Source: Methylorubrum extorquens (lineage in GTDB: Bacteria; Pseudomonadota; Alphaproteobacteria; Rhizobiales; Beijerinckiaceae). From it: a DNA stretch of 32,000 bases. The position numbers were made by a program, and so were the translations under genes. The DNA lies in NCBI GenBank assembly GCA_900234795.1, contig LT962688.1, positions 2,850,001-2,882,000 on the forward strand, read 5' to 3'. Below are positions 12,115-32,000 of this stretch, one piece after another. The notes under the pieces are model-generated. The model ran no database searches and was not told the DNA's origin. It saw only the letters and a list, made by a program, of their open reading frames with translations. Each line of letters begins with the position of its first letter. Positions within the stretch are counted from its first letter, which is position 1.

Positions 12115-12178
12115 CACTCGGCCGGGCATGCCCGCCGCCGGCCGATGGGACGATGGAAACCCTCAGGGTTCAGACTGA

Positions 12179-15148
<2,970 letters not shown>

Positions 15149-15176
15149 GCGGCCCTCCCCTACCGCTCTTCCTTAC

Positions 15177-15210: not shown

Positions 15211-15250
15211 CCAGGCACCCGCCTGATGGTTCAGCGACGTCGATCAGCCG

Positions 15251-15688
15251 ATGGCCCAAAAGCAGACTCCCTCCGGTCCCACGCAGCGTCAGCAGCGCGT
15301 GGCCGAACTCATCCGCCACGCTCTGGCCGAAGTGCTGCAGCGTGGTGACATTCAGGATCCGGTGCTCGGCTCGCATGTCGTCACCGTTCCCGAGGTTCGG
15401 ATGTCGCCGGACCTCAAATTGGCGACCGCCTACGTCATGCCGCTCGGTGGCCAGGACGAGGCCCCGGTAATCGCCGCGCTCGAGCGTCACAAGAAGATCC
15501 TCCGCCAGGAAGTGGCCCGGCGGGTGAACCTGAAATTCGCGCCCGACTTGCGTTTCCGGCGCGACGAGACCTTCGACGAGGCGGCCCGGATCGACCAGCT
15601 CCTGCGGAGCGAGAAGGTCCAGCGGGATCTGGAAAGTGCTCCTCGCGAGGACGACGAGGGCGAACCGGATTCGTCCTCGCGCGATTGA
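15251..15688 (+). CDS. rbfA: ribosome-binding factor A
   Basis: 145 aa: [22 protein letters not shown]...[19 protein letters not shown]...[19 protein letters not shown]. Conserved position after infB. Confidence 0.93.
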
Positions 15689-15896
15689 TCTCCATCCGGG
15701 CGGCTGCCGTTGCTCCGCCCCTTCGCCCAACGGGCCGCTTGATGGCCCCTTGATGGGCTGAGCCGCTCAAGAGCCTCGTCCTGGATGTCCATTCCAGGCC
15801 GATGCTCTTCGCTTTTGTTTTTGCATCGTCGTTTGCCGAGAGCCGGTGGCCACCTTTCGGGACGATGCTCTAGAGAACCCGTCGATCGAGGACAGG

Positions 15897-16922
15897 ATGC
15901 AAGACGACATTTCTTCCGAACGCGCCGGTGAAGCGCCGCAGGAGCCGCGGGGCGACCTGCGCCGGGACGGACCGCCGCGGGGCGGACGCCGCCCTCAGCG
16001 CGGCCGTCCGCGCCATGACCGGCCGAAGAAGAACGACGTGAGCGGCTGGGTGGTGCTCGACAAGGGCGTCGGCATCACCTCGACCCAGGCCGTGGCGGTG
16101 GTGAAGCGCCTGTTCAACGCCAAGAAGGCGGGCCATGCCGGCACGCTCGATCCGCTGGCATCGGGCATCCTGCCGATCGCACTCGGCGAGGCAACGAAGA
16201 CGGTGCCGTTCGTCATGGACGGGCGCAAGGCCTACCGCTTCGAGGTGACCTGGGGTGTCGAGACCGACACCGACGATGCCGAGGGTCGCCCGGTCGAGAC
16301 CTCCGACGTCCGCCCGACCCGTGAGGCACTCGAGGCGGCTCTGCCCGCCTTCGTCGGCGAGATCGAACAGGTGCCGCCGCGCTACTCCGCCATCAAGATT
16401 CAGGGCGAGCGCGCCTACGACCTCGCCCGTGATGGCGAGGTGGTGGAACTGGTGGCCCGCTCCGTGCGCATCGACCACCTCTCGGTGATCGAGCACCACG
16501 GCGACCGCACCGTGATCGCTGCGGAATGCGGCAAGGGCACCTACGTTCGTGCGCTGGCCCGCGATCTCGGCCGGGTGCTCGGCTGCTACGGTCACGTCTC
16601 GGCCCTGCGGCGCACGCGCGTGGGCCCCTTCGAGGAGGCGGCCGCCTGCAGCGTCGCCACCCTCGAAGAGAGCACCGAGATGCATCTCCACGCGGTCGAA
16701 ACGGCTCTGGACGAGGTGCCCTCGGTGGCGGTCAGCCGCGACATGGGGCTTCGCCTGATGCGCGGTCAGCCGGTGATTCTGCGCGGGCAGGACGCGCCGA
16801 TCGGCGGCAAGGCCTACGCGACTTGCGGCGGCGTGCTCGTCGCCGTCGGCGATGTCGAGCGCGGCGAACTGGTGCCGCATCGCGTGTTTCACCTCGGTGG
16901 AACGGCGGCACCGAGAAACTGA
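15897..16922 (+). CDS. truB: tRNA pseudouridine(55) synthase TruB
   Basis: ORF 15846..16922. The ATG at 15897 is preferred because GAGGACAGG lies just upstream; GTG at 15846 is possible. It carries the catalytic motif GHAGTLDPLASGILPIALGEATK. An Arg-rich N-terminal extension precedes the core. Confidence 0.93.
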   Translation: MQDDISSERAGEAPQEPRGDLRRDGPPRGGRRPQRGRPRHDRPKKNDVSGWVVLDKGVGITSTQAVAVVKRLFNAKKAGHAGTLDPLASGILPIALGEATKTVPFVMDGRKAYRFEVTWGVETDTDDAEGRPVETSDVRPTREALEAALPAFVGEIEQVPPRYSAIKIQGERAYDLARDGEVVELVARSVRIDHLSVIEHHGDRTVIAAECGKGTYVRALARDLGRVLGCYGHVSALRRTRVGPFEEAAACSVATLEESTEMHLHAVETALDEVPSVAVSRDMGLRLMRGQPVILRGQDAPIGGKAYATCGGVLVAVGDVERGELVPHRVFHLGGTAAPRN

Positions 16923-17050
16923 AGGATCGGTTCTCGCGCGTGGTCGATCGAGTGATTTGCAAGAAAAGAAGTGCTCACAGCCGCTTCATCGAACGCAGTC
17001 GAGAATAGCCGGCTCAATCTAACCTTTGAGAAAAAACGCTCTCCATAGAA

Positions 17051-17082
17051 GCCCGTCGATTCCACGGATCGGCGGGCTTTTT
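17051..17082 (+). terminator. rho-independent terminator about 130 nt downstream of truB
   Basis: gcccgtcgat (17051-17060) pairs with atcggcgggc (17068-17077) at 9 of 10 positions and is followed by TTTTT (17078-17082). Confidence 0.7.
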
Positions 17083-17083
17083 C

Positions 17084-17856
17084 ATGTGCGTGTCTCTGGG
17101 CCTCAAGCTGGCGATGGTCGTCGGGCTCCTTGGTCTCGTCGGAGCGGGTATCTCGGCCTTCGCGCTGCGGCAGGCATCGCAGGAACAGGCCCGCGCCGCC
17201 CTCACCGAATCGTTCTGGAATGCCGGGCTTCAGGCCCGAGGTCTGGCCCAAGCCATCGAGCACGCCGTGGTCGAGGCCAGTGCCGTCTACACCGCCTCTG
17301 ACACCGAGGAGGCCAAGCAGCGGCTCTCCGCGCTTCAGACACGGCGCTCGGTGAGATGGAGGCAGCGCGCGGGCCGTACCTGTCCGCGATGGATGGGCAT
17401 CTGCCGCCGGAGAAGCGGCGCCGGCCTGACCTCGCGGTGAAGGAGTTCGTCGCCTATCAGACCGAGACCGCCGCGCTCGGTCTCGCGGTGTCGCCGCGCG
17501 CCGCCCTGATCCAGGCGAGCGACGAGGCGACGGTGAAGAATCACGAGCGCATGGTGGCGGAGATCTCGGCACTGGGCCGCGACGTGCTCGCGCGCCTCGA
17601 CGGACAGCGGGACGCGGCGGCGCAAGTGCAGCGCAAGGCCTTCATCACGCTCATCGCCGCGCCGGCCGCAGCCCTCATCCTGGCATTGCTCGCCGCCATC
17701 TGGATCATCCGAACGCAGATCCAAAGCCCGCTGCACCGGCTGAAAGCCACCATGCAGGCGCTTGCTGACGACCGGCTCGACGAGACGGTGCCGTTCGGCG
17801 CGGCGTTGCCAGCCATCGAGGAATCGCCGCGGACCGACGCTCCGTCGCCTGGATAA
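17084..17856 (+). pseudogene. methyl-accepting chemotaxis protein, N-terminal remnant (TM1, periplasmic 4-helix sensor, TM2, first HAMP helix), frameshifted
   Basis: Frame A (17084-) reads MCVSLGLKLAMVVGLLGLVGAGISAFALRQ...EEAKQRLSALQT. Reading continues sensibly only in frame B (open from 17302): ...LGEMEAARGPYLSAM...AFITLIAAPAAALILALLAAIWIIRTQIQSPLHRLKATMQALADDRLDETVPFG, then junk and a stop at 17856. The shift lies near 17343-17347 and is consistent with an extra CG. There is no SD, because the ATG abuts the truB terminator. Confidence 0.75.
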
Positions 17857-18007
17857 TGAAACCGGTAGGATCGGGCTGAGAGGACTGAACAGAGGGCTAC
17901 GATTGTCAGGTATCCTTTGAACCTAGCCATTCTCAATTGGTCAGATTTCTGCTTTTTCAGGCAATGATTTGCATATAGTGATCTGACGATTTGGCGAGGT
18001 GTTGGAT

Positions 18008-19421: not shown

Positions 19422-20588
19422 TCAGGCCGGCAGACCCGTCTCAATGATCCGCGCCCAGAGCGAGGCGCCATAGGGGATGGCGGCGTCGTTGAAGTCGTAT
19501 TCCGGGTGGTGGAGGCCGGCGGAGGGGCCATTGCCTATGAAGATGTAGGCGCCGGGCCGGTGGGCCAGCATGTAGGAGAAATCCTCGGCCGCCATCATCG
19601 GCGCCACGTCCCGCTCGACACGATCCTCGCCGACGACCTGCGCGGCGACATCAGCCATGAAGTCGGTCTCGGCCGGGTGGTTCTCAGTCGCCGGATAGCC
19701 GCTGGCGAAATCGACGTTCGCCCGCGCGCCGAAGGCCACGGCAACATTCTCTGCAATCGCCGCGAGCCGCTCGCGCATCAGGTCGCGCACGGCCGGCGTC
19801 AGCGCCCGCATGGTGCCGCGCAGTTCCGCCGTCTGCGGCAACACGTTGAACGCCTCGCCCGCGTCGACCGCGCAGACGGAGACCACCGCCGAATCGAGCG
19901 GATCGATGTTGCGGGCGACGATGGATTGCAGGGCGACGACGATGTGGCTCCCGACCAGCACCGTATCGACCGCTGCCTGCGGCAGGGCCGCGTGCCCGCC
20001 CCTTCCCTCGATCCAAATCGTGAAGCGGTCGGTGGAGGCCATGATCGGGCCGGGACGGATCGCGAAGGTGCCGATCGGTTGGCCGGGGACGTTGTGAAGG
20101 CCGTAGACCGACTCGACGCCGAAGCGCTCCATCATTCCGTCCTGCACCATCGCCTCGCCGCCGCCCCCGCCCTCCTCGGCCGGCTGGAAGATCAGCACCG
20201 CGCGGCCATCGAAGTCGCGGGTCTCGGCGAGGTACTTCGCGGCGCCGAGCAGCATGGCGGTGTGCCCGTCATGGCCGCAGGCGTGCATCTTGCCCGGCGC
20301 AATCGAGCGGTAGGGAAGGTCGCGGATCTCCTGGATCGGCAAGGCGTCCATGTCGGCGCGCAGGCCGATCGCGCGGTTGGAACCGTGCGCCCGCCCGCGG
20401 ATCATGCCAACGACGCCGGTGCGGCCGATCCCGGTGACGACCTCATCGCAGCCGAAGGCGCGCAGCTTGTCCGCCACGAAACCGGCGGTGCGGTGAACGT
20501 CGTACTGAAGCTCCGGATGGGCGTGGAGATCGTGCCGCCAGGCGGTGATCTCCTCCGAGAGATCGGCGATGCGGTCGATGACGGGCAT
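19422..20588 (-). CDS. M20D-family amidohydrolase (hippurate hydrolase / N-acyl-amino-acid amidohydrolase-like)
   Basis: ORF 19422..20648 trimmed to the ATG at 20588 (MPVIDRIADLSEEITAWRHDLHAHPEL...). It has the metal-binding MHACGHDGH motif and a typical length of 388 aa. Confidence 0.88.
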   Translation of the reverse strand: MPVIDRIADLSEEITAWRHDLHAHPELQYDVHRTAGFVADKLRAFGCDEVVTGIGRTGVVGMIRGRAHGSNRAIGLRADMDALPIQEIRDLPYRSIAPGKMHACGHDGHTAMLLGAAKYLAETRDFDGRAVLIFQPAEEGGGGGEAMVQDGMMERFGVESVYGLHNVPGQPIGTFAIRPGPIMASTDRFTIWIEGRGGHAALPQAAVDTVLVGSHIVVALQSIVARNIDPLDSAVVSVCAVDAGEAFNVLPQTAELRGTMRALTPAVRDLMRERLAAIAENVAVAFGARANVDFASGYPATENHPAETDFMADVAAQVVGEDRVERDVAPMMAAEDFSYMLAHRPGAYIFIGNGPSAGLHHPEYDFNDAAIPYGASLWARIIETGLPA

Positions 20589-20675
20589 GGATCCAACCTT
20601 TCCGGAAGGTCCCAGCAAGCAGAAGGCCAACACCGGGTCAACGGCCAAGCCTCGGGGCGAGCGCCCGATAAGCGA

Positions 20676-21140
20676 TCACCCCTGCTTTCTTCCTCGTCTC
20701 AATGGTGCCACGCCCGTCGCCGCGGGCTCGGGCGCCTCTCCTCCCGCCAGATCGTCGAGAATCGGGCAGTCCGGTCGGTCGTCGCCGCAGCAGCGTTCGG
20801 CCAGATGTTCGAGGGTGCGGGCCATCGCCTCCAACTCGCCGATGCGGCGGCGCAGGTCGGCGACATGGCCGAGCGCCACGGCCTTGACCGCGCCGCTGGC
20901 GCGGGAGCGGTCGTGCCAGAGCGCCAGTAGGTCGGCGATCTCCCGCATCGAGAAGCCGAGGTCGCGGGCGCGGCGGACGAAGCGGAGCGCGTGCAGGTCG
21001 GCCTCGCTGTACACGCGATAGCCGGCGGCCGTCCGTCCCGCGGGGCCGAGCAGGCCCGTCTCCTCGTAGTAGCGGATCATCTTGGCCGAGACGCCGGTCG
21101 CGCGGGCCGCCTCGCCGATGGTGACGGAGGGCGCGCTCAT
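20676..21140 (-). CDS. cueR: Cu(I)-responsive MerR-family regulator CueR/HmrR
   Basis: N-terminal [27 protein letters not shown] and C-terminal metal loop [15 protein letters not shown] (compare E. coli CPGDDSADCPI). Its start overlaps the copA stop by 4 nt (21137-21140). Confidence 0.9.
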
Positions 21141-23635
21141 GCGGTGCCCCCCGCCCGCTTGAGGCGCAGCGCGTTGCCGACGACGAAGACGCTGGAGAGC
21201 GCCATCGCCCCGGCCGCCAGGACCGGCGAGAGCTGCGGACCGCCGAAGACCGCGAGCCCACCGGCGGCGACGGGGATCAGCGCCGCGTTGTAGGCAAACG
21301 CCCAGAACAGGTTCTGGCGGATGTTCGCGAGCGTCGCACGCGACAGGATCACGGCCTCGACCAGCCCGGTGAGCGCACCGGACATCAGCACGACGTCGGC
21401 ACTCTCCACCGCGATGTCGGTGCCGGTACCGATGGCGATACCGATATCGGCCTCGGCCAGAGCGGGTGCGTCGTTGATGCCGTCGCCGACGAAAGCGACT
21501 GCGCCGTGGGCCTCGCGCAAGCGGCGCAGGGCCGCGACCTTACCCTCGGGCAGCACCTCGGCCTCGACTTCGGTGATGCCGAGCGAACGCGCGACCGCCT
21601 CGGCGGTGGCGCGGGCATCCCCCGTCAGCATCGCCACGGTGAGGCCGCGGGCGCGCAGGGCGTCAAGGGCCGCCCGCGCCTCCGGCTTGACCGGATCGGC
21701 TACCGCGACGAGCGCCGCGAGTCGGCCATCCACGGCGGCGAAGATGGGGCTCTTCCCCTTCTGAGCGAGACGGCTCGCCTCGCTTTCGAGCGCAGCGGTC
21801 GTCACGCCGAGCCGTTCCATGAAGCGGCGGTTGCCGAGCGCCACCGCCCGCCCCTCGACTCGCGCCGAGACGCCGTGGCCCAGCACCGCCTCGAACGCTT
21901 CGGCGTCAGGGAGTGCCCCGGCGTCGCGCGCCGCGGCGGCGATGGCGCGGGCGACCGGATGCTCGGAGCGCGCCTCGACGGCGCCTGCCAGCGCCAGCAC
22001 ATTCTCCCGGGAGAAGCCTGGCGCGGTGACGAGATCGGTCAGGCGCGGACGGCCCTCGGTCAGCGTGCCGGTCTTGTCGAGGGCGATGACGCGGGCGTCC
22101 CGCAGCGCCTGCAGCGCGGCGCCCTGACGGAACAGGACGCCGCGTTCCGCCGCCCGGCCGGTACCGACCATGATCGAGACCGGCGTCGCCAGCCCCATGG
22201 CGCAGGGGCAGGCGATGATGAGCACGGAGATTTCCGCGACCAAGGCATGTCCGAGCGCCGGCGAAGGCCCAAGGACGAGCCACGCGAGGAAGGTCAGCAC
22301 AGCGATGGCGATGACGGCGGGCACGAACCACAGGGTGACCCGGTCCACCAGCGCCTGGATCGGCAGCTTGCCGCCTTGCGCCTCCTCGACCATCCGCACG
22401 ATCCGCGCCAGCGCGGTGTCGGCACCGGTGCGGTCCACTGTGAAGTCGAAGCTGCCAGTGGTGTTGAGGGTGCCGCCGACGACGCGGGCGCCCATGCCCT
22501 TCTCCACCGGCACCGGCTCGCCGGTGATCATGCTCTCATCGACGAAGGAGGCGCCCGATGCGACGAGGCCGTCCGCCGGCACGCGCTCGCCGGGCCGCAC
22601 GCGCACCCGGTCGCCGATCCTGAGGTCGGCCGCCGGCACCTCGCGCTCGGTCGCACCCTCGACCCGCCGCGCCGTCTTGGGCGAGAGGTCGATCAGCCGC
22701 GCGATCGCCGCGCCGGCCCGCCCCTTGGCGCGCGCCTCCAGAGTGCGGCCGAGCAGGATCAGCGTGACGATGAGGACGCTCGCCTCGAAGTAGAGATGCG
22801 CCGACCCGTCCGGCAGCCACCACGGCGCGGCGGTCGAGACCAGGGAGAAGAGGTAGGCCGCGCCGGCGCCGAGGGCGACGAGGGCGTTCATGTCGGGATG
22901 GCCGCGCAACAGGTTCGGCACGCCGATCCGGAAGAAGCGCCGGCCGGGCCCGGCCAGCACCAGGGTCGCGAGCACCGCCTGAATCCAGGCGAAGCCGCCT
23001 GCGCCGAGCACGCCCGTCACCGCATGGTGGAAGCCCGGCAGCAGATGGCTCCCCATGTCGAGGACCACGACCGGGGCCGACAGAACGGCGGCGACGATCA
23101 GGTCGCGGCGGAGTGCGGCCGCCTCCCGCTCCTGCCGATCCGCGTGTGAGGCGTCCGCTGCGGCACCGAGCGCACGCGCCTCGTAGCCGGCCTGCCGCAC
23201 GGCCGCCTCGACATCGCTCAGGGAGACGGTGCCGGCGGCGTGGTGCAATTCCGCCCGGCCGGTGGCGAGGTTCACGCTCGCCGAGACAGCACCGGGAAGC
23301 GCCATAAGGGCGCGCTCCACGCGTCCGACACAGGAGGCGCAGCTCATCCCCTCGACGGAGACGGCGGTGACGGATTCCGGCACGTCGTAGCCGGCTTCGC
23401 GGATTGCCTCGACCGCCCGCGAGGGTGGTAGGCCATCCGGCAGGGTAAGGCTGGCGCGGCCGGTGGCGAGATTGACAGCGGCATTGGTCACGCCGGGCAG
23501 CGCGCGGAGCGACCGCTCGACGCGTCCGACGCAGGAGGCGCAGCTCATGCCCTCGACCGGCAGGGTCAGGCGGGACGGCCGCTCGGCCTCAACGGGCGCG
23601 GGCGGCGTGGTGTGGGATTCAAGGATCGTTTCCAT
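21137..23635 (-). CDS. copA: copper-translocating P1B-type ATPase
   Basis: 832 aa with two HMA domains ([12 protein letters not shown] twice), the CPC motif ([13 protein letters not shown]), DKTGTLT and VGDGINDAP. Confidence 0.96.
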
Positions 23636-23650
23636 GCCACCTCAGATGGG

Positions 23651-23673
23651 CCTTCCCATCATGGGAAGGTCAA
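23651..23673 (-). promoter_or_regulatory. CueR/MerR-type operator overlapping the copA promoter
   Basis: The minus strand reads CTTGACCTTCCCATGATGGGAAGGCCCATCT. A TTGACC -35 (23673-23668) runs into a perfect 7-5-7 dyad CCTTCCC-ATGAT-GGGAAGG (23669-23651). This closely resembles E. coli PcopA (CTTGACCTTCCCCTTGCTGGAAGG) as I recall it. Confidence 0.85.
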
Positions 23674-23835
23674 GGGGCGGGGCGTTCGAGGCTTTCAGGC
23701 CAGGGAAAGCACCTTTGCCCCCGCATCTTTCGGCACGTGTCGCGCGTCGTTCGATGTCCGCGCTGGCGCGACGGCATCGACCGACTCTTCCCGGCAAACG
23801 GGGCCGACCGCCCACCGTTCCCCCGGGGTCATCCG

Positions 23836-25128
23836 CTAATCCCGTGCGGGCACCTCGTCCGGCATCGGTCCCACGGTATCGGGCCGATGCTCCGGCAGGC
23901 TCACGCGCACCGTGGTGCCATGCCCTGGCTCGCTCTCGATGATGAGCTTGCCCCGGTGGCGATTGAGCGTGTGCTTCACGATGGCGAGCCCGAGACCGGT
24001 TCCGCCCTGCTGGCGGCTCGACGCCGTATCGACGCGGTAGAAGCGCTCGGTCAGCCGCGGGATATGCTCGGCCGCAATGCCCGGCCCCTCGTCGCGCACC
24101 CTGAGCTCGATTCGTGCCCCGCGCCCGTCCACCCCCTCGACGCGGTGGAGCGACACGACGACCACGCCGCCGCTGCCGCCATACTTCATCGCGTTCTCGA
24201 CGAGATTCTCGATGACGCGCAGCAGCTCGTCGCGATCCCCGAGCACCGGGAGCGGGATATCGGGCCGCTCGACGCTCAACGCGATGCCACGCTTGAGGGC
24301 GAGCGGCGCCTGCATGTCGACCATCTGGCGGGCGATGCGGCCGAGATCGACCGTCCGGGTTGGCACGACGTGCTCGTGCAGCTCGATGCGCGAGAGCGAG
24401 AGCAGGTCGTCGATCAGCCCGGTCATGCGCTGGGCCTGGGTGCGCATGATGCCGAGGAACTGCTCGCGGGCGCGGGCATCGTCGCGAGCTGGGCCCTGAA
24501 GGGTTTCGATGAAACCGAGGAGGGCGGCGAGCGGCGTGCGCAGTTCGTGGCTGGCATTGGCGACAAAATCGACCCGCATCGCCTCGAGGCGGCGCGCCTC
24601 GGTGAGATCGCGCAGGAACAGCACGACGTTGGCCTCGCCGCCGCCGGGCATGTCGGACATCGGAAGGGCGCCGATCTGCACCTCGAAGGCGCGTTCGGTC
24701 GGCACGCGGGTCGCGTACTCGGTCCGCACGGCCGATCCGGTGCGCAGCACTTCCTCGATTCCATCGAGCACGTCGGGCGCGCGCAGGGAGAAGGAGAGCG
24801 GATGGCGGAGCTTGAGCCCCGGCAGAAGCCGCCGGGCGGCCGGGTTGGCCTCCATGACCACCACCCGGCGATCGACCAGGATGACGGGATCGGGGATGTT
24901 CGCCAGCAGCGCCTCGGCGATGGTGTGGCGGCGCGGTGGGCCCGCCTCGGACTGCTGCAGAACCGGCCCCTGCACGCGGCGCCCGATGAGCCCGCCGATG
25001 AAAAGGGCAAGGCTGGCGGAGACGATCAGGGCGGCATCGACCGTGCCGCCGATCGCTTCCGCGAAAACAATCACGGCCACGGCCAGGGTGACGCCGAGCC
25101 ACAGAGGGCGGGCCGGGTTGCTCAACAT
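23836..25128 (-). CDS. phoR: PAS-containing sensor histidine kinase, PhoR-like
   Basis: 430 aa with an N-terminal membrane anchor and a PAS region. The H-box is DFVANASHELRTPLAALLGFIETLQGPARDDARAREQFLGIM, the N box is ENAMKYG and the G boxes are RDEGPGI / GGTGLGLAIVKH. The H-box context matches rhizobial PhoR as I remember it. Confidence 0.75.
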   Translation of the reverse strand: MLSNPARPLWLGVTLAVAVIVFAEAIGGTVDAALIVSASLALFIGGLIGRRVQGPVLQQSEAGPPRRHTIAEALLANIPDPVILVDRRVVVMEANPAARRLLPGLKLRHPLSFSLRAPDVLDGIEEVLRTGSAVRTEYATRVPTERAFEVQIGALPMSDMPGGGEANVVLFLRDLTEARRLEAMRVDFVANASHELRTPLAALLGFIETLQGPARDDARAREQFLGIMRTQAQRMTGLIDDLLSLSRIELHEHVVPTRTVDLGRIARQMVDMQAPLALKRGIALSVERPDIPLPVLGDRDELLRVIENLVENAMKYGGSGGVVVVSLHRVEGVDGRGARIELRVRDEGPGIAAEHIPRLTERFYRVDTASSRQQGGTGLGLAIVKHTLNRHRGKLIIESEPGHGTTVRVSLPEHRPDTVGPMPDEVPARD

Positions 25129-25151
25129 GCCGGGCTAGAGAACCGGCCAGA

Positions 25152-26207
25152 TCACGGGTCGTTCGCGGCCGCCCGGCGCCGCAGACGCTGCATTCCCTCG
25201 TAGATGCCGAGCATCACCAAGGCGAGGGCGAAGGGAACGAGGTAGTAGCAGACCCGGAACAGCAGCAGCGAGCCGAGCACCGACTCGCGCGGCAGGTAGG
25301 ACAGGGCGAGCAGGATCGTGGCTTCGAACACGCCGATGCCGCCCGGCGCGTTGGAGGCGATGCCGAGCATGGCGGCCAGCACGTAGATCGCCAGGAAGGT
25401 CGTGAAGGGGAGGTTCAGACCCTCCGGCATCAGCATGTAGAGCACGGCGGCCGCCGCGCAGACATCGCCGATGCCGACCACCATCTGGCTGAACGACACC
25501 GTGGCGCCCGGCAATTCGAGGTGCCAATGGCGCACCTTGATGTAGCGGCGCTTCACCGAGACCCAGGCGAGATAGCCGAGCACGAGCCCGAGCGTGCCGA
25601 AGCCGAGGATCTGATTGAGGCGCGCGGTGGTGTTGACGCCGATGCTCTTGAAGGTGAGGCTCGCGAGCTGGCCCGCCTCGATGATGAGGCTGAAGCCGAG
25701 CACCACCCCCATGCCGAGCCAGAAGGTGAAGCCGGCGATCACCGTCAGCGCGGCGATCTTGGCCGCCGACAACCCGCGCTTCGAGTAGATCCAGTAGCGG
25801 ATCGTCGCTGCGGTGATGAGCGGAAAGCCGAGGGTGAAGCTCACCGCGTAGCTCGTGAAGGAGGCGAGCGCCGTGATGCGGTAGGGCAGCTTGATCCGGA
25901 GCTGGCGCAGGGCGAGCGCGTCGTAGCAGGTCAAGAACAGGTAGCTGACCGCCACGAACAGGAAGGCTTCGGTAAGCTGGGTGGCGGCGACCGCAGTGAA
26001 GGCCGCCTGCAGCTCGGCCCAACTGATCTCTGCCGAGAGCTTCCACAGAACGCCGAGCGAGGCGACGATGAGGATGAGACTGGCGATCGTGCCGATCCAG
26101 GCATAGCGCCCGCGCTTCGATGCCTTCTTCGATCCGGCATCAGCCTCGCGGTCCGCGTCGGCCGGTTCGGCCTCCGTGACCATCCTGTGCTTCCCGGCAG
26201 GTTTCAT
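25152..26207 (-). CDS. UPF0104 / lysylphosphatidylglycerol-synthase-TM-region family membrane protein (flippase-like domain only)
   Basis: ORF 25152..26477 trimmed to the ATG at 26207 (26183 is an alternative). The untrimmed ORF would overlap the upstream gene and reads as junk. Polytopic, with LTCYDALALRQL, ...IASNAPGGIGVFEA... and LLLFRVCYYLVPF, which are typical of PF03706 proteins. Confidence 0.75.
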   Translation of the reverse strand: MKPAGKHRMVTEAEPADADREADAGSKKASKRGRYAWIGTIASLILIVASLGVLWKLSAEISWAELQAAFTAVAATQLTEAFLFVAVSYLFLTCYDALALRQLRIKLPYRITALASFTSYAVSFTLGFPLITAATIRYWIYSKRGLSAAKIAALTVIAGFTFWLGMGVVLGFSLIIEAGQLASLTFKSIGVNTTARLNQILGFGTLGLVLGYLAWVSVKRRYIKVRHWHLELPGATVSFSQMVVGIGDVCAAAAVLYMLMPEGLNLPFTTFLAIYVLAAMLGIASNAPGGIGVFEATILLALSYLPRESVLGSLLLFRVCYYLVPFALALVMLGIYEGMQRLRRRAAANDP

Positions 26208-26394
26208 GTGAGAACGGTATCCGCCTCCGCTGGTCGACCGCAGGGTGTATTCGGCGCGGGTCGTCCCGAGCGGTATCGATCCCGAACCGCCCCCGCGGCA
26301 TTTAGGGGCTTCGACCGGCAAAGGCCAGCGAAGGGCCACCGGCACGGGGATGCCCTGCACTGGGAATGCGGCCGAAATCACGGTATCCTGACCG

Positions 26395-27021
26395 TCACGG
26401 CGTCGCAGCGAGATGCCTGGCCGCCTCTGCCAAACCCGCCAGGATGCGGTCGCGCACGGCGGGCGCGGTGCAGACATAGGTCGGGCTCGGATGGGGTATC
26501 GCCACCACCGGCAGTTCCGGCCTCAAGGCGGAGAGCGGCGCCGACGCCTGGCGCGCAAAGCGCCCGGCCGGCACGACCACCGCGAGCCGCGGCAAGAGTG
26601 CAAGCAGCGGCGCGAAGTATGGCGCGGCAGCGCTCGCTTCCGCTCGGCGGGGCGCCCGGTTGAGGGCGCCAGGCGCGTGGATCACCCAGGGCACGGCGTT
26701 CCAGATCAGCGTGTCCCGCCGGGCGATCCCGGCCTCGGCCAGGAAGCGGAACAGGTTGGCGGCGGTGCCGGTCGGATTGTCGCGGGAGACGAAGCCGGTG
26801 CGGCCGATCGAGGGGCCCGGCGTCTCGAGCAGCAGGAGCAGCCGCGCCTCCACGCCGCCATCGAGCGGATCGGGATCGGGGACGGCCGCGCCCCGCTCGG
26901 CGGCGATCATGCGGGCGAAGGCGCGCAGCGGCCGGACATGCGGCGCGTCGGCCGTCGACCGGCGCGCCTGGAGAAGGGCGGGATCGCGCAGGCTCTTCGG
27001 CGCGTCAGGCGAAGCCGGCAT
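26395..27021 (-). CDS. uracil-DNA glycosylase superfamily (UDG-fold) protein
   Basis: 208 aa with an LETPGPSIG motif (like GE/QxPG motif A) and a C-terminal HPSPTY (HPS motif B). Its start overlaps the PIG-L stop by 17 nt. Confidence 0.55.
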   Translation of the reverse strand: MPASPDAPKSLRDPALLQARRSTADAPHVRPLRAFARMIAAERGAAVPDPDPLDGGVEARLLLLLETPGPSIGRTGFVSRDNPTGTAANLFRFLAEAGIARRDTLIWNAVPWVIHAPGALNRAPRRAEASAAAPYFAPLLALLPRLAVVVPAGRFARQASAPLSALRPELPVVAIPHPSPTYVCTAPAVRDRILAGLAEAARHLAATP

Positions 27022-27766
27022 CGCGCAGACCCGGCGGCACCCGGCCCTGCAAGCGGAAGCGTTCGACGCCGTTCTCAGCGGAAAGACGCGTGCGCAATCC
27101 GTCCGGCCCGCCGAACTGGAAGCCGATCTGCGACCCGTAGGCGGCGCAGGCCTCCGCCTTGCGGTGCTCGGCCTCCGAATCGAGGCGCACGACCTGCTCG
27201 GGCCAGTGCTCGAAGATCGACCTCAGCGGCTCTTTCGGCTCGGTGTTGCGCACCGTGTAGGGGAAGTCGCGCCACCACAGCACCGGCAGGGGCGGCTGCG
27301 CGGCGCGGAATGCGCGCACGACCTGCACGTGATCGACATGGCCGCCGACGGCCTGTGGCGCCAGGATCAGATCCGGCCCGGTATCGGCCACCAGCCGCTC
27401 GAAGGCGTCGGCGAGGTTGGCCCCGATCCGGTCGTCGGGGCGAAGTTCGGCGAACAATTCCGGCGCCGATGCGTAGCCGCGATGCGGCGCCTCCCGGAAC
27501 GGCAGGTGGACCGGCTCTTCGATGCCGAGCGCACGGGCCGCCGCGCGATCCTCCTCGCGGCGCAGGGCCATGTAATCGACCTCCGGCCCCAGCCCCTTGT
27601 CGAGCTGACAGGCCAGAGCGAAGCCGCGCGGGTCCCGCACCGATGCCGTGAAGATCGTCGCTATGACGACCTGCCAGCCCTGCGCGGCAAGCCGCGCCAG
27701 CGTGCCGCCTGCCGAGAAAACCGCATCATCGAGATGCGGCGAGATGGCGAGTGCGGTACGCGTCAC
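27005..27766 (-). CDS. PIG-L / LmbE family de-N-acetylase
   Basis: ORF 27005..28042 trimmed to the GTG at 27766 (VTRTALAISPHLDDAVFSAGG...). It has the zinc motifs PHLDD and GGHVDHVQV. The GTG overlaps the TGA of the upstream GT4 gene (GTGA). Confidence 0.85.
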   Translation of the reverse strand: MTRTALAISPHLDDAVFSAGGTLARLAAQGWQVVIATIFTASVRDPRGFALACQLDKGLGPEVDYMALRREEDRAAARALGIEEPVHLPFREAPHRGYASAPELFAELRPDDRIGANLADAFERLVADTGPDLILAPQAVGGHVDHVQVVRAFRAAQPPLPVLWWRDFPYTVRNTEPKEPLRSIFEHWPEQVVRLDSEAEHRKAEACAAYGSQIGFQFGGPDGLRTRLSAENGVERFRLQGRVPPGLRDAGFA

Positions 27767-29001
27767 AGCAGGTGCGGCTCCTTGCGGAAGCGGCAATCGG
27801 CGTCGATCGGCAGCGTGTCCGGGACATCCGTGTGCGGGCGCTCCCCGGCGACCTGCGCATAGACATCCATGATCTGACGGCCGACGGCGGTCCAGGAATA
27901 GACCCGGCGGCACTCCTCCAATCCAACCTCGGCGAGACGCTGGCGCAAATCGTCGTCCTCCACCACCCGCCGAAGGGCGGCGGTGAGCGCCCGCACATCG
28001 CCGGGATTCACCAGCAATCCGTTCTCTTCGTCCCGCAGGCAATCCGAGACGCCGACGGAGTGGGTCGAGACCACCGCGAGCCCGGCGGCCATGGCCTCCA
28101 GAATCGTGTTCGAGAAGCCCTCCGCGTAGGTCGGCGAAACGAAGACGTCGGCCTCGCGGTAGAGGTCCGGCACGGTGTCATAGTCGGCGTAGCCGGTGAA
28201 GCGGACCTGCGCCGAGGTGAAGCCGATGGCGTCCGCTTTCGCGCGGGCGGACTCGACATCCGGTCCGATGCCGGAGATCGTCGCGTCGAACGGCACGCCG
28301 GCCTCCCAAAGCCGCTCCAGGGCGTCGAGGAAATCGAGCACGCCTTTCCGGCGGTCGACCCGGCCGTGGTAGAGCAGCCGCACCGGCTCCTCGTCCTCAC
28401 GCTCGGCCTGGAAGCGTTCTCCTGGGGTGAAGCGGGCGGTATCGACGGCGCCGGGGACGATGGCGAAGCGAGTGGGATCGGAGCCGAGCCGGTCACACAC
28501 CTCCTTCAGGAAGGATTGCCCGCCGATCAGCAGGGCGTTGGCATGGGCCAGCACCTCGACCATCGCGCGGCGATGCGTCTCGCAGCAGGAGCCGACCCAG
28601 TGGCCGTCGCCGCCCTGGATCGAGACGACCGTCGGCACGCCGAGCCGCTTGCCCGCCAGCAACACCGCCCAGCCGGTCGGGTAGCCATATTGCGCGTGCA
28701 GCACGTCGAACGGCTTCTTGGCGTGCTCGGCGCAGATCGTCGCGACGATCGTATCGATGTCACGCTCGAAATCCCCGCCCTCCTGCTCGCCCTGCTGTTC
28801 GAGGCCGATGACATGGACGCCGGGCACGGCGGGCGGCGGGCCGCCGCCATAGACGCGCGTGCCGAATTCGTCGCCGCGATATTGCGAGATCATCGTCACG
28901 TCGTGGCCGGCCCCCGCCACCTCGCGCAGAAGGTTCTGCGCATAGACGCTCATGCCGGAGATCGCCGGGAAGTAGCGGCGGCTGACGAAACAGATTCTCA
29001 T
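27763..29001 (-). CDS. GT4-family (GT-B, retaining) glycosyltransferase
   Basis: 412 aa with N-terminal MRICFVSRRYFPAISGMSVYAQNL and a C-terminal EX7E region YAEGFSNTILEAMAAGLAVVSTHSVGVSDCLRDEENGLLV. Its ATG overlaps the stop of the TIM-barrel gene (ATGA). Confidence 0.9.
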   Translation of the reverse strand: MRICFVSRRYFPAISGMSVYAQNLLREVAGAGHDVTMISQYRGDEFGTRVYGGGPPPAVPGVHVIGLEQQGEQEGGDFERDIDTIVATICAEHAKKPFDVLHAQYGYPTGWAVLLAGKRLGVPTVVSIQGGDGHWVGSCCETHRRAMVEVLAHANALLIGGQSFLKEVCDRLGSDPTRFAIVPGAVDTARFTPGERFQAEREDEEPVRLLYHGRVDRRKGVLDFLDALERLWEAGVPFDATISGIGPDVESARAKADAIGFTSAQVRFTGYADYDTVPDLYREADVFVSPTYAEGFSNTILEAMAAGLAVVSTHSVGVSDCLRDEENGLLVNPGDVRALTAALRRVVEDDDLRQRLAEVGLEECRRVYSWTAVGRQIMDVYAQVAGERPHTDVPDTLPIDADCRFRKEPHLL

Positions 29002-29891
29002 GACGTGGGCAGCCCGGGCATCGCGGCTTCGCGCGGTGTGGTGTCCGGCATCGGAAGTCCGGGGCCGGGACGGCGGCAGGTGCGGAGATAATCGAGGGAT
29101 TGGCCGACCATCACGTCGGCGCGGTGCGACTCGCGCGAAAGCTCCACGCAGACGAGTTTGCTGAAACCGATCGCGTCGAGCGCGTCCAGAACGGCAGGGA
29201 CATCCATGTCGCCCTCGCCGAAGGGCAGATGGATGTGCTCGCCCCGCTTCATGTCCTCAATCGCCACGGTGCCGAGGCGCGGAGCGAATTCGTGCACGGC
29301 CGCGGCCGGATCGCGCTCCCCCGTGACGAGGCAGTGACCAGTGTCGAGGGCGAGCGAAAGGCCCGGCAGGTCGATCGCGGCAAAGTCATCGAGCGTCTCG
29401 ATCAGCATGCCGGGTTCGGGTTCGAGGGCTGCGACGACGCCCTTCTCGGCGGCGAAGTCGGAGACCTCGCGCAGCCCCTCGGTCAGCCATCCCCGCGCCT
29501 CGCTGTGGTCGACGCCCGGCTTCGGCACGCCGGCCCAGAACGAGACGGCTTCGGAGTTCAGGATCTTTCCGATCTCGATCGCCCGCTTGAGGAAGCCGAC
29601 GCGCCGTGCCCGGCCCGAAGCGTCGGCGGTGACGAGCGTCGGCTCGTGCTTGGCGGTCGGGTCGAGCAGGAAGCGGGCGCCGGTCTCGATCACCGAACCG
29701 AGTTCGAGCCGGTTCAGGAGGCTAGCAATGCGATCAGCCTCGATAACCCAATTCTCGGCGAAGGGGTCGAGATGGTGGATGTCGAGGGTGAGCGCGACGC
29801 CGTCATAGCCCGCATCCTTGATGAGGCGAATCGCATCCTCGATGCGGTGGTTGGCGGTGCCGTTGGTGTTGTAGGCAAAGCGCAAGCTCAT
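28998..29891 (-). CDS. xylose-isomerase-like TIM-barrel protein (sugar phosphate isomerase/epimerase, AP_endonuc_2 fold)
   Basis: C-terminal 297 codons of ORF 28998..30980, starting at the ATG at 29891 (MSLRFAYNTNG...). Motifs include ALEPEPG, LDTGH and HLPFGEGDMD. The ATG overlaps the YcaO stop (ATGA). The upstream part of the 660-aa ORF is an alternate frame of the YcaO gene. Confidence 0.85.
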   Translation of the reverse strand: MSLRFAYNTNGTANHRIEDAIRLIKDAGYDGVALTLDIHHLDPFAENWVIEADRIASLLNRLELGSVIETGARFLLDPTAKHEPTLVTADASGRARRVGFLKRAIEIGKILNSEAVSFWAGVPKPGVDHSEARGWLTEGLREVSDFAAEKGVVAALEPEPGMLIETLDDFAAIDLPGLSLALDTGHCLVTGERDPAAAVHEFAPRLGTVAIEDMKRGEHIHLPFGEGDMDVPAVLDALDAIGFSKLVCVELSRESHRADVMVGQSLDYLRTCRRPGPGLPMPDTTPREAAMPGLPTS

Positions 29892-31507
29892 GCGGGCCTC
29901 CGTTCGGCCCGGCGGCCCTGGCGTTCGTAGCGGAACGGCGCGTGGTGCGATTCCGGCTCGCGGTAGAGCGGATAATGCGAGCCGACGATCTGCTCGGCCA
30001 AGGCCACGTCGAAGAGCGGCTGGCCGCCGAGGCGCTCGATCGCCTCCGGCGTCAGGCGGACGGGCAGCAGCGTGTCGGTCGGCGTGCCGAAGCGGATCAG
30101 AGGGTGATCGCTTTCGATCAGCTTCTTCGCGTTGCGCTCGCCGATCCGGTAGTAGCTCATGGTCTCGACTTCGAGCCCTGGCACAATTGCCTTGACCACG
30201 CCGATCCCGCCGCCGGGCGGCGTGCAATCGACGTAGAGCACATCGAAGCCTGCCTCCTCCAGCCGGTCGCGGGCGATCTTTCCGCGAGCGTGACCGTCCG
30301 GGGCCGGTGTTGTCGGCAAGTCGGAAAACGCCTTGGTGCTGCGCTCGGAATAGACCGTGTTGCTCAGAACCCCACGCAGCTCGGCCGACGAGAGGTCGAG
30401 CCATGCGAGCATGGCCTGCAGCGCGCGGCTCTCCTCCAGATCGAGGCTCGGCAATGCCTTCTGGATGAAGGATTCGACATAGCCGGGCGGGGCCACCGTG
30501 TCGGCAAGCGCCAGCGGCCCGTGGCCGAAGGTTTTTCGGACGCGCGCCGCCTGAAACTCGAGAAGCGCCTTGCGCAAAGCCCGCTCGCGGTCCGGATCGC
30601 AGGCCTCGCCGCAGGCCGAGAGCGCGATCGGCGCGGGCGTCCGGGCCGGGTCCTCGTCGTAGCCGACGACGTAGAGGTTGGTGAGACCGAACTGATCGGT
30701 GGCGAATTTCGGCAGCGCCCGGATGCCGAGGCTTTCCAGCCGGTCGAGCATGCCGCGCGTCTCGGGGCCGATCCCGTCGAGATCGAGCATCACGCCCTGA
30801 TCGAGGGCCCGGAACAACAGGCCGTTGCCGTCGCGCTGGAGCAGTTCGAGCAGACCGTGGCCCAGCGCAAAGTTCACGTCCGGCCCGGCGCCGAGGCCGT
30901 TCGTGATGAGGTTGGTGAAGGGCTGATAGCCCTCGCGCAGCTCGAAGTAGTCGGTCGCGGCGATATCGAGCGGCATCCACACCGACTCGCCGGTGCGGGC
31001 GCGGACCGCCTTAGTCCAATCGAGCGGGGTATCGCGGCCGACGGAGGAACCGGCGGGCAGGCACAAAGTCAGCGGATCGGCGACGGAGGATGCGCCGTAG
31101 ACGCGCACGAGGTCGGCGTAGGAGACGGCCGCTTGGTTGTCGGCCTTGCGTGGCAGCAGGGCGACGGACGGCATCAGGTTCTCGGCGATCTCGGCCACCG
31201 CGCCGATCAGCGCTTCGTCGTCGGTGGCGCCGTAGCCGATGCCGGAAGGCATGGCGCCGACATAGAACGGATCATCGAGAAAGAGCGCCACGAACCAGAC
31301 CGGGATGCCGGTGCGGTCGAGCCCCGCGAGATTGAAGCCGACGACCCGGCCCTCCGGCAGCACATCGAGATAGGCCTTCACGACATCGGGCAGCCGCGCG
31401 GGCAGCCCCTCGATCTTGCGCGGAGAGCCGCGGTGATAGGGGCGCGGCGCCGCCAGATTCGGGTGGTGGGCGCGGTCGTCCCGGTCGAGGGCGTCGGTCG
31501 CTGTCAT
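29888..31507 (-). CDS. YcaO-domain protein (ATP-dependent amide-activating enzyme family), stand-alone
   Basis: ORF 29888..31543 trimmed to the first ATG at 31507 (MTATDALDRDD...). YcaO hallmarks are LDRTGIPVWFV, GYGATDDEALIGAVAEIAENL, ITNGLGAGPDVNFALGHGLLELLQRDG, a C-terminal EVETMSYYRIGERN and a Pro-rich end (HYPLYREPESHHAPF). Confidence 0.8.
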   Translation of the reverse strand: MTATDALDRDDRAHHPNLAAPRPYHRGSPRKIEGLPARLPDVVKAYLDVLPEGRVVGFNLAGLDRTGIPVWFVALFLDDPFYVGAMPSGIGYGATDDEALIGAVAEIAENLMPSVALLPRKADNQAAVSYADLVRVYGASSVADPLTLCLPAGSSVGRDTPLDWTKAVRARTGESVWMPLDIAATDYFELREGYQPFTNLITNGLGAGPDVNFALGHGLLELLQRDGNGLLFRALDQGVMLDLDGIGPETRGMLDRLESLGIRALPKFATDQFGLTNLYVVGYDEDPARTPAPIALSACGEACDPDRERALRKALLEFQAARVRKTFGHGPLALADTVAPPGYVESFIQKALPSLDLEESRALQAMLAWLDLSSAELRGVLSNTVYSERSTKAFSDLPTTPAPDGHARGKIARDRLEEAGFDVLYVDCTPPGGGIGVVKAIVPGLEVETMSYYRIGERNAKKLIESDHPLIRFGTPTDTLLPVRLTPEAIERLGGQPLFDVALAEQIVGSHYPLYREPESHHAPFRYERQGRRAERRPA

Positions 31508-31539
31508 CGTTACCCTGTTTGCGGCTCGCCGGAACTCAC

Positions 31540-31668
31540 CCAACCCACGGCCTCATCCTGAGGTGCGAGGCGAAGCAGAGCCTCGAAGGATCCTCCAGTT
31601 CCCACGCGGTCGCTGGAGGATCCTTCGAGGCCGCTCGCGCGGCACCTCAGGATGAGGGCATGGGTTGG
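31540..31668. repeat. 129-bp imperfect palindromic (REP/MITE-like) element
   Basis: The left arm ccaacccacggcctcatcctgaggtgc...gcctcgaaggatcctccag (31540-31598) pairs with the right arm ctggaggatccttcgaggc...gcacctcaggatgagggcatgggttgg (31613-31668). The outer 27 nt match at 25 positions, the inner 19 nt are perfect, and there is a divergent internal bubble. It generates the spurious + ORF 31519..31737. Confidence 0.85.
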
Positions 31669-31694
31669 ATGTGCCGGTCTCCTCCCAAATCTCG

Positions 31695-32000
31695 TCAGGC
31701 CGCGTCGCGGCCGGCCGGTTTGCCCGCCGCCGCGTAGGCGCGGGCGATCAGGCGCATGGTGTGCAGGTCGCGCTCGGCGTCCCAGGCGGTGCGCTCGTCC
31801 CGTTCGCGCAGGGCGCGGCCGAAGGCGCGCACCTGTTCGAGGAAGGGCGAGGCCGTCGTGTCGAAGGCGATGTCCTCGACCCGGCCATCCGCCCCGTTCG
31901 TGAAGGTGACGCTGCCGCCCGCGGTCTGGCCCATCGTGTCGGTCGCGGTGAGCATCCCACCGGTGCCAACCACCTCCAGCCGGCGGCGCGGCAGGGCGTC
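31695..32000 (-). CDS. Gfo/Idh/MocA-family oxidoreductase, C-terminal 101 codons; the gene starts beyond the window end
   Basis: The frame stays open to position 32000 (…LPRRRLEVVGTGGMLTATDTMGQTAGGSVTFTNG...ASPFLEQVRAFGRALRERDE...LHTMRLIARAYAAAG). This C-terminal alpha/beta dimerisation-domain pattern is typical of the family. Call made from a fragment only. Confidence 0.5.
   Translation of the reverse strand, partial: DALPRRRLEVVGTGGMLTATDTMGQTAGGSVTFTNGADGRVEDIAFDTTASPFLEQVRAFGRALRERDERTAWDAERDLHTMRLIARAYAAAGKPAGRDAA

Follow-up and report, generated by a model that had tools for sequence, protein, structure and literature searches.

YcaO enzymes are known, in the textbook case, for chemistry on the peptide backbone. 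What could such an enzyme be doing in an operon of sugar and cyclitol enzymes? The question is raised by a stretch of 32,000 nucleotides of the Methylorubrum extorquens genome (GenBank assembly GCA_900234795.1, contig LT962688.1, positions 2,850,001 to 2,882,000 of the forward strand), hereafter the window. Near its end, a YcaO gene stands among genes for a Gfo/Idh/MocA-type oxidoreductase (GFO), a xylose-isomerase-like TIM barrel, a GT4 glycosyltransferase, a PIG-L/LmbE-family de-N-acetylase and a UDG-like protein. The operon is real and widely conserved. It joins a known cyclitol-aminosugar logic to a subfamily of YcaO proteins and probably encodes an undescribed small-molecule pathway. No description of this system was found in the full-text literature searched.

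The YcaO gene and its conserved operon

A first-pass annotation, made from the letters of the window, had listed these six genes on the minus strand and proposed that they form a single unit. The five complete open reading frames (ORFs) pass the Pfam models of the families named. The sixth is a GFO gene by orthology: its fragment in the window has no Pfam match on its own and shares 88% identity with the C-terminus of a 342-aa protein, the GFO orthologue of Methylorubrum populi. Direct reading of the sequence confirmed the junction overlaps, ATGA for YcaO/TIM barrel and TIM barrel/GT4, GTGA for GT4/PIG-L and 17 nt for PIG-L/UDG-like. The TIM-barrel gene is translationally coupled to the YcaO gene by the first of these. 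No terminator-like site above chance level was found inside the five-gene block, and a scan of positions 25000-32000 for sigma-70 promoters and terminators gave nothing above chance.

In M. populi, four more genes on the same strand come ahead of the YcaO gene. They encode Ino1 (myo-inositol-1-phosphate synthase), a 306-aa HD-like protein, a 393-aa methyltransferase (MT) and the complete GFO. The idea of one conserved unit is supported for the six genes, and its extent had to be revised: the real unit has nine genes, of which the window holds the last five and a fragment of the sixth from the end. Membership was revised as well. The UDG-like gene is a lineage-specific add-on outside the core, to which the other five of the six genes belong.

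Gene order was surveyed by tblastn over 86 loci, 80 of them from Methylobacterium/Methylorubrum. All 80 keep the order Ino1, HD-like, MT, GFO, YcaO, TIM barrel, GT4, PIG-L, UDG-like, MprF-type flippase, apart from the exceptions given below for the last two genes. The window YcaO is 94% identical to those of M. populi and M. thiocyanatum and 97% identical to that of Methylobacterium sp. Leaf123. In a genome-contig scan for YcaO homologues, the best 80 of 466 matches were all from Methylobacteriaceae; distant taxa were reached by plasmid tblastn, a library of representative sequences and contig look-ups. In several phyla, YcaO orthologues with identities as low as 35% are surrounded by the same gene set, beyond the Rhizobiales in which its conservation had been left to be checked. 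Because of this recurrence, the gene adjacency is, as judged from gene order, far beyond chance. On the same comparison, the operon is conserved in at least three bacterial phyla. Grouped at 50% identity, the YcaO subfamily amounts to 123 clusters with E<=1e-30, and it is found widely in Acetobacteraceae (Roseomonas, Belnapia, Craurococcus, Muricoccus radiodurans, Rhodopila and others). Other contexts surround the two YcaOs that diverge most among those sampled, GT4 genes only in one case and a carbamoyltransferase in the other. In the latter locus (L096 1031-4149), the YcaO gene (35% identity) overlaps a NodU/TobZ-type carbamoyltransferase gene and is adjoined by sugar ABC-transporter and ROK genes, a setting that does not look like that of a modified peptide.

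The YcaO assignment itself is firm. The protein scores 161.9 bits against PF02624 (cut-off 25.7) and covers model positions 2-325 of 325. An AlphaFold2 model (pLDDT 89, pTM 0.89) has the expected fold, with Foldseek matches to solved YcaOs. The best are the thioamide-forming enzymes of the archaea M. jannaschii (E 1e-20) and M. kandleri (4e-15), followed by LynD, and further matches include the peptidase-type YcaO 7u58, E. coli YcaO and McbD (entries 6peu, with E 1e-20 and a target TM of 0.73, 6cib, 4v1v, 7u58 and 4q86). Thioamide-forming archaeal YcaOs are the nearest relatives by sequence too. The window protein is a member of a distinct subfamily, recognised by the signature E-L-L-Q-R-D-G-N. 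Of the acidic motifs, the first, E-x2-E in helix 1, is kept (E106, E109). In the second, E221-L-L-Q224-R225-D226, 73 of 76 subfamily sequences have Gln where Glu is canonical; E-x2-E-R-D stands at this place in all solved members aligned, among them MJ1094, the M. kandleri YcaO, LynD and TruD. A His at position -4 of E-x2-Q-R is common to the window YcaO and MJ1094. The C-terminal motif is YPLYREP, and azoline-forming YcaOs carry a C-terminal PxPxP. The protein stays below the cut-offs of both the SagD-type azoline model TIGR03604 (94 bits versus 219) and the McrA-glycine thioamidation model TIGR03266 (63 versus 365).

In clusters of other lineages the YcaO has a close partner. This MBL-like protein has an N-terminal Cys4 zinc ribbon and an MBL fold in which HxHxDH is reduced to HxHxYG. 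All 11 cyclitol-type clusters that were sampled from other lineages have it, ahead of YcaO, overlapping it or fused to it. Between phyla, YcaO varies more than any other cluster protein (43-45% identity, versus 61-68% for the TIM barrel and GT4), possibly as a result of the loss of the MBL-like partner in the lineage of the window.

Gene fusions link YcaO to the sugar and cyclitol enzymes. A PIG-L::YcaO fusion of Acuticoccus (P0249, L087) is in frame in its locus. MBL::YcaO fusions occur in at least six clusters at 50% identity (P0259, P0288, P0331 and P0332, with P0274 and P0281 found by profile comparison), and GFO::YcaO and YcaO::TIM-barrel fusions are present among representative sequences. 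The other enzymes are also joined to one another, as MT::GFO and, in one lineage, as MT::GFO::GT4 (P0431, 1239 aa). The YcaO subfamily is, in turn, without every hallmark of systems for ribosomally synthesized and post-translationally modified peptides (RiPPs). A search for a conserved small ORF that could encode a precursor peptide, in the gene-masked intergenic parts of nine clusters from eight lineages, gave only chance-level pairs. E1-like, Ocin-ThiF, TfuA and PqqD domains are absent from every listed neighbourhood.

As the first-pass annotation had surmised, the gene set matches no characterised pathway: no cluster protein reaches a curated NCBIfam equivalog (MshA, MshB, BshA, BshB, IolG, IolE, SagD- or McrA-type). 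The M. populi GFO orthologue (PF01408, PF22725, PF02894) has IolG as its best NCBIfam match, below cut-off (TIGR04380, 110.5 bits versus 355). The TIM-barrel protein, found in the Ino1-type clusters and 62-68% identical across phyla, may be a sugar or cyclitol isomerase, epimerase or dehydratase. Its matches are weak, to UlaE and L-ribulose 3-epimerase in the PDB and, below threshold, to IolO, hydroxypyruvate isomerase and IolE in NCBIfam (IolE, TIGR04379, 22.4 versus 290). The nearest solved relatives of the GT4 are sucrose-phosphate synthase, PimA, MshA and BshA, and it has a sub-threshold match to GlcNAc-phosphatidylglycerol synthase (GlcNAc, N-acetylglucosamine). Those of the PIG-L protein are the teicoplanin-type GlcNAc deacetylases Dbv21 and Orf2* (1e-18). 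The HD-like protein (L001 6646-7566 and orthologues) has a weak HD_3 match, no match in a PDB profile search even at E<=10, and a set of invariant residues: H159, H162, H191, H192, H194, D200, H255, D258, D261, H269 and H288.

Proposed pathway and competing explanations

A second type of cluster bears on the substrate of the pathway. Its order is DHQS-family cyclase, HD-like, MT::GFO fusion, GT4, PIG-L, MBL-like, YcaO, and it was found in an Opitutae lineage (Verrucomicrobiota) and in two metagenomic lineages (L088, L093, L094). These clusters have no Ino1, and a homologue of the TIM barrel was undetected by tblastn. The Opitutae cluster has one additional ORF of 205-308 aa without family assignment. 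The cyclases share 42-47% identity with Npun_5231 and Npun_1267, the EboD paralogues of Nostoc punctiforme (PMC5133447). They form a clade with both, separate from the DHQS, EEVS, EVS and DDGS reference sequences, which were taken from the supplement of PMC4426668. For actinobacterial ebo clusters that lack EboD, it was proposed that Ino1 and two isomerases/dehydratases reach the same intermediate (bioRxiv 10.64898/2026.05.21.724671). The exchange of Ino1 plus TIM barrel for an EboD-like cyclase follows the same logic, as a second, independent instance of the swap recently proposed for thallusin biosynthesis. By this analogy, it speaks for a shared downstream pathway that receives a keto- or deoxy-keto-cyclitol in both types of cluster. 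Since the HD-like protein is retained in the cyclase-type clusters, whose cyclase product should carry no phosphate, its role probably goes beyond that of an inositol-phosphate phosphatase.

The acceptor of the glycosyl transfer had been guessed to be a cyclitol or a lipid. A cyclitol is now better supported, with Ino1 at the start of the operon just outside the window and an EboD-like cyclase in its place in the second cluster type. On this basis the following route can be proposed. Ino1 would make inositol phosphate, which the GFO dehydrogenase and the TIM barrel would turn into a keto- or deoxy-keto-cyclitol; in the cyclase-type clusters, the EboD-like enzyme would form such a cyclitol directly and GFO would oxidise it. 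The methyltransferase would then methylate the cyclitol intermediate and GT4 would add GlcNAc. PIG-L would strip the acetyl group, leaving a free amine beside the carbonyl-bearing carbocycle. Transfer of GlcNAc followed by de-N-acetylation is the logic of MshA/MshB and of BtrM/BtrD. Finally, YcaO and ATP would phosphorylate the carbonyl or enol oxygen, so that this oxygen could be replaced. Most likely the amine of glucosamine (GlcN) would attack and close a C-N bond, as an enaminone, imine or amidine. Precedents for parts of this chemistry exist, since MysC prepares 4-deoxygadusol for the addition of an amine by phosphorylating its C3-OH (PMC10666671) and MT-Ox, a methyltransferase with an NAD-oxidoreductase, turns a keto-cyclitol into gadusol (PMC4426668).

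These proposals are not equally secure. We consider it likely that the pathway makes a small molecule of GlcN-cyclitol type and that YcaO acts within this pathway. The fuller statement, that the product is a tailored GlcN-cyclitol pseudodisaccharide on which YcaO performs an ATP-driven carbonyl activation, is evenly poised between belief and doubt. Just short of that balance is the view of this enzyme as the first YcaO on a non-peptide small molecule, catalysing an ATP-driven, carbonyl-activating and ring-closing step toward a GlcN-cyclitol metabolite, perhaps UV-absorbing or stress-protective, from either of two cyclitol sources. A stress-protective or UV-absorbing role of the product can be put forward only tentatively. 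The particular closure of amine onto carbonyl by YcaO, drawn by analogy, is a little more doubtful still.

Several points weigh against the GlcN-cyclitol proposal. The cluster is known here from its genes alone, and substrates, order of steps and YcaO reaction are all deduced from the gene set. All YcaOs characterised so far act, to our knowledge, on the backbone of a peptide or protein, and a small-molecule substrate would be without precedent. From the gene set a single amide can be predicted, the N-acetyl of GlcNAc, which PIG-L would remove, and the favoured carbonyl would be a vinylogous acid, not an amide. Use of ATP is not certain because the canonical Mg/ATP motif E-x2-E-R reads E-x2-Q-R across the subfamily. 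The MBL-like partner is missing in Methylobacteriaceae and Beijerinckiaceae, the window included. The cyclases are EboD-like, not EEVS or DDGS. The likeness of MT and GFO to the vertebrate MT-Ox is one of enzyme pairing, not of sequence comparison; a word-indexed search with an MT::GFO fusion, of low sensitivity for the vertebrate enzyme, returned 23 proteins, all bacterial. The clusters hold no aminotransferase or ATP-grasp gene, so a closer analogy with aminoglycosides or mycosporines is unsupported. Lastly, the membrane-associated neighbours (MprF-type flippase, MdoH-like GT2, PlsC-type acyltransferase) vary by lineage and leave room for a lipid-linked product.

What else might the operon do? 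The YcaO could act on the N-acetyl group of a GlcNAc-cyclitol to give a thioamide, an oxazoline or an amidine, with PIG-L serving another step or hydrolysing the activated species. This would be true amide chemistry, as in all known YcaOs. The nearness of thioamide-forming archaeal enzymes in sequence and structure and the His shared with MJ1094 point in this direction, and the PIG-L::YcaO fusion would suit two enzymes working on one acetamido group. We find this explanation unlikely all the same. Neither TfuA nor any other sulfur-delivery gene is present in the clusters, nor is there a source of the second nitrogen of an amidine; sugar oxazolines are labile, and a deacetylase next to a modifier of the same acetamide looks redundant.

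To a similar degree, it is improbable that the product is an envelope glycolipid or lipid head group resembling GPI, PIM or GlcN-lipids. GlcN-inositol would then be carried on a lipid and flipped across the membrane, and YcaO would be auxiliary or regulatory. GT4 with PIG-L is indeed also the PIG-A/PIG-L logic of GPI anchors, and the resemblance of the GT4 to PimA and to GlcNAc-phosphatidylglycerol synthase could be read in the same way. Nearly every Methylobacterium locus that reaches far enough downstream of the cluster encodes an MprF-type flippase domain there (L063 does not), and no other lineage does. An MdoH-like GT2 ends the Roseomonas cluster, an OlsF/GlsA-like acyltransferase ends that of Opitutae and one cluster adjoins hpnI/J/K-like hopanoid genes. 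These membrane-associated neighbours, however, change with every lineage and none belongs to the conserved core. The core has no CDP-alcohol phosphatidyltransferase or other lipid-attachment enzyme, all its proteins look soluble, and the YcaO, MBL-like and HD-like proteins would be left unexplained.

Less probable again is a conventional YcaO that modifies a peptide or protein encoded elsewhere, with the sugar and cyclitol enzymes decorating that peptide or being co-regulated for another reason. The precedent of all characterised family members speaks for it, as does a fold closest to that of McrA-modifying enzymes. Stand-alone YcaOs without a recognition domain exist, for example in bottromycin biosynthesis. 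The nine clusters, on the other side, have no conserved small ORF in or beside them and the usual partner domains are missing. YcaO is repeatedly fused to PIG-L, GFO, the TIM barrel and the MBL-like protein, and the make-up of the cluster stays constant as the background shifts from Alphaproteobacteria to Bacteroidota and Verrucomicrobiota.

It is very improbable that unrelated housekeeping genes have come together in an operon of convenience, or that the operon serves to break down inositol-containing glycosides: the GFO and TIM-barrel pairing is also found in inositol catabolism and the best NCBIfam matches are IolG and IolE/IolO, but these lie far below cut-offs, Ino1 and a Leloir-type GT4 are biosynthetic enzymes, the transporter, kinase and aldolase of the iol pathway are absent, and conservation and fusions across phyla exclude chance adjacency.

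Returning to the GlcN-cyclitol proposal, a UVA-absorbing compound of Methylobacterium, methylobamine, deserves mention. A second-hand description presents it as a galactopyranose-fused pyranooxazine that carries an iminoacetic acid and five more linear carbons. A pyrano-oxazine of this kind would arise if a glycosidic O1 and a free N2 bridged neighbouring carbons of the aglycone; neither the carbon count nor the galacto configuration would be accounted for. A link between the cluster and methylobamine seems quite improbable. No gene cluster for methylobamine was found in the literature searched.

If the proposal is true, YcaO chemistry extends from the peptide backbone to carbohydrates or cyclitols, with a defined and testable class of substrates. 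The operon is core to the sampled Methylobacterium/Methylorubrum, dominant bacteria of leaf surfaces, and is widespread in other taxa that are pigmented and tolerate desiccation and radiation. Therefore, the product is probably an abundant, ecologically relevant and so far unassigned metabolite. Its producers would include Methylobacterium, Acetobacteraceae, Hymenobacter and Opitutae, several of the host genera being typical of light-exposed, dry surfaces.

Accessory genes, flanking regions and regulatory elements

The coordinates of the window features, of the related loci and of the MBL-like genes are collected in Table 1.

Table 1. Features of the window, the upstream motif, and related clusters in other genomes (YcaO percentages are identities).
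Feature	Locus	Position	Strand	Evidence or remark
3' end of GFO gene	window	31695..32000	-	fourth operon gene; 5' part beyond window end
Nested palindromic element, REP/MITE-like	window	31537..31671		inserted in GFO-YcaO junction
YcaO-family protein, 539 aa	window	29888..31507	-	PF02624, 161.9 bits, E 3e-47
Xylose-isomerase-like TIM barrel, 297 aa	window	28998..29891	-	PF01261, 1.8e-33
GT4 glycosyltransferase, 412 aa	window	27763..29001	-	PF00534, 1.2e-33; PF13692, PF13579, PF13439
PIG-L/LmbE-family de-N-acetylase, 253 aa, GTG start	window	27005..27766	-	PF02585, 4.4e-20
UDG-superfamily protein, 208 aa	window	26395..27021	-	PF03167, 43.4 bits vs cut-off 24.3
Stand-alone MprF-type flippase transmembrane domain, 351 aa from ATG at 26207	window	25152..26207	-	PF03706
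ECF-sigma-like motif	L001	5337-5366		beyond window end; equivalent positions in about 70 related loci
MBL-like gene	L085	9204-10055
MBL-like gene	L086	9165-9995
MBL-like gene	L087	6799-7656
MBL-like gene	L088	8164-9066
MBL-like gene	L090	9156-10004
MBL-like gene	L092	9186-9998
MBL-like gene	L093	14554-15483
MBL-like gene	L094	14387-15262
Cluster, Beijerinckiaceae metagenome-assembled genome	L003/L004			YcaO 64%; same core, unrelated flanks
Cluster, Roseomonas haemaphysalidis plasmid	L085			YcaO 45%; same core, unrelated flanks
Cluster, Hymenobacter volaticus plasmid (Bacteroidota)	L086			YcaO 43%; same core, unrelated flanks
Cluster, Acuticoccus	L087			YcaO 50%; same core, unrelated flanks
Cluster, metagenomic lineage	L090			YcaO 42%; same core, unrelated flanks
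Cluster, metagenomic lineage	L092			YcaO 48%; same core, unrelated flanks
Cluster, metagenomic lineage	L095			YcaO 35%; same core, unrelated flanks

The product of the last operon gene is a member of the UDG superfamily by its family model and motifs. LLLLETPGP and PHPSPTYVCT are at least 90% conserved, and contain E-T-P-G-P (motif A, of the G-x-x-P-G type) and H-P-S-P (motif B, H-P-S). The family-4 model TIGR00758 is not reached (23 versus 125 bits) and no significant relative was found by sequence among solved structures. The gene is confined to clusters of Methylobacteriaceae and Beijerinckiaceae; four complete Methylobacterium loci lack it, as do all distant clusters. The flippase gene follows about 190 nt downstream. 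Its product matches the N-terminal half of the bifunctional MprF model (2e-58) and has no synthase domain; its start codon was set so that the length agrees with that of the M. populi counterpart. It is possibly an accessory gene for export or lipid handling. None of the six window proteins matched a PADLOC defence-protein model.

Further downstream on the minus strand (19422-25128) lies an unrelated block with an M20 peptidase, a MerR/CueR-type regulator, a CopA-type copper P-ATPase with two HMA domains and a PAS-HisKA sensor kinase. M. populi has the same order, plus a small Csp copper-storage gene within the block.

In the window, the GFO and YcaO genes are separated by 187 nt and uncoupled. 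The gap houses a palindrome of 135 nt with outer arms of 37 nt (84% complementarity) and inner arms of 19 nt (100%). Its core, CCTCATCCTGAGGTGC, occurs 2 times, versus 0.03 expected. GFO and YcaO abut or overlap in about 25 other Methylobacterium loci, where the palindrome is absent, and are 120-250 nt apart in about 40 species, often with the same core. Because of this distribution, the palindrome looks like a REP/MITE-like, lineage-specific insertion in an operon junction, and not by default like an operon boundary. A CCTCATCCTGAGG core is found in the GFO-YcaO junction of many, though not all, Methylobacterium species. An Rfam scan of the window and two related loci gave nothing at gathering threshold, the palindrome included.

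About 100 nt upstream of Ino1, most Methylobacteriaceae loci carry a motif resembling promoters of extracytoplasmic function (ECF) sigma factors, TTGGAACG-N14-CCAGTT (GGAAC-N16-AGTT). Its spacer varies and both boxes are conserved. The motif resembles the EcfG consensus, GAAC-N16,17-C/GGTT, and its -10 box AGTT differs at the first -10 position. Among the entries listed for an M. extorquens EcfG microarray, the only Ino1 is a different paralogue, META1_0140.

The flanks of the distant clusters have features of their own. On the Roseomonas replicon (421 kb), two spore-photoproduct-lyase-family genes directly adjoin the cluster (L085 15861-17982). On the Hymenobacter plasmid, the GFO is annotated as two coding sequences (L086 8102-9150) and the GT4, unannotated, matches in two frames (L086 12371-13602), which may reflect decay or sequencing error. 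In L095, the cluster is followed (11376-17957) by a 770-aa GT4, a GH130, a type III polyketide synthase, a methyltransferase and an FAD oxidoreductase. In L092, hpnI/hpnJ/hpnK-like genes (GT2, B12-radical SAM, YdjC; hopanoid cyclitol-ether side chain) stand directly upstream of the cluster (1088-4730). The notion that the cluster is a hopanoid add-on was dropped, the adjacency being confined to this one lineage.

Comparison with known systems

Mycothiol biosynthesis (Ino1, MshA, MshB) offers the same opening: an inositol-phosphate synthase, a GT4 that adds GlcNAc to inositol and a PIG-L-family deacetylase that frees the amine for an ATP-dependent step. However, the cluster enzymes score far below the corresponding models (GT4, 88.5 versus 462.5 for MshA TIGR03449; PIG-L, 20.7 versus 224.35 for MshB TIGR03445). 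The cluster has no MshC ligase or MshD (GNAT) acetyltransferase, its hosts are Gram-negative, and it adds genes for an oxidoreductase, a TIM barrel, a methyltransferase, an HD-like protein and a YcaO. It differs from bacillithiol systems in the same way, with 76.8 versus 273.7 bits for BshA (TIGR03999) and 36.7 versus 182.5 for BshB1 (TIGR04001).

In the paromamine module (BtrC, BtrM, BtrD), a cyclase forms deoxy-inosose, which receives GlcNAc from a GT4 before a PIG-L-family enzyme takes off the acetyl group. Exactly this trio of cyclase, GT4 and PIG-L is present in the cyclase-type clusters L088, L093 and L094. Here, though, the cyclase is EboD-like and not DOIS, no aminotransferase is available to give an aminocyclitol, and YcaO, MBL-like and HD-like proteins are added.

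Gadusol and mycosporine pathways also begin with a cyclitol-forming enzyme and use a methyltransferase with an NAD-type oxidoreductase, to which the MT::GFO fusion can be likened by enzyme pairing only. Their ATP-dependent enzymes (MysC, MysD) give the model for activation of a carbonyl or enol oxygen toward an amine (PMC4426668, PMC10666671). In the cluster, the cyclase falls outside the EEVS and DDGS clades, YcaO takes the place of an ATP-grasp enzyme, of which no cluster has one, and the amine would be a tethered glucosamine instead of an amino acid.

With the YcaOs of RiPP and protein modification (LynD, PatD and McbD; the McrA YcaO; the bottromycin YcaO), the window protein shares the Pfam family, the fold, E-x2-E and most of the second motif. 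It departs from them in E-x2-Q-R, in YPLYREP, in having neither precursor peptide nor partner protein, and in its carbohydrate and cyclitol genomic partners.

The ebo operon (EboD with the TIM barrel EboE; thallusin) differs in most of its genes. The clusters described here have no UbiA prenyltransferase, TatD-like hydrolase, EboA or EboF, and ebo operons have no GT4, PIG-L or YcaO. What the two have in common is the origin of the carbocycle: the cyclase-type clusters use an EboD-like cyclase, and the same logic of replacing EboD by Ino1 would hold for both.

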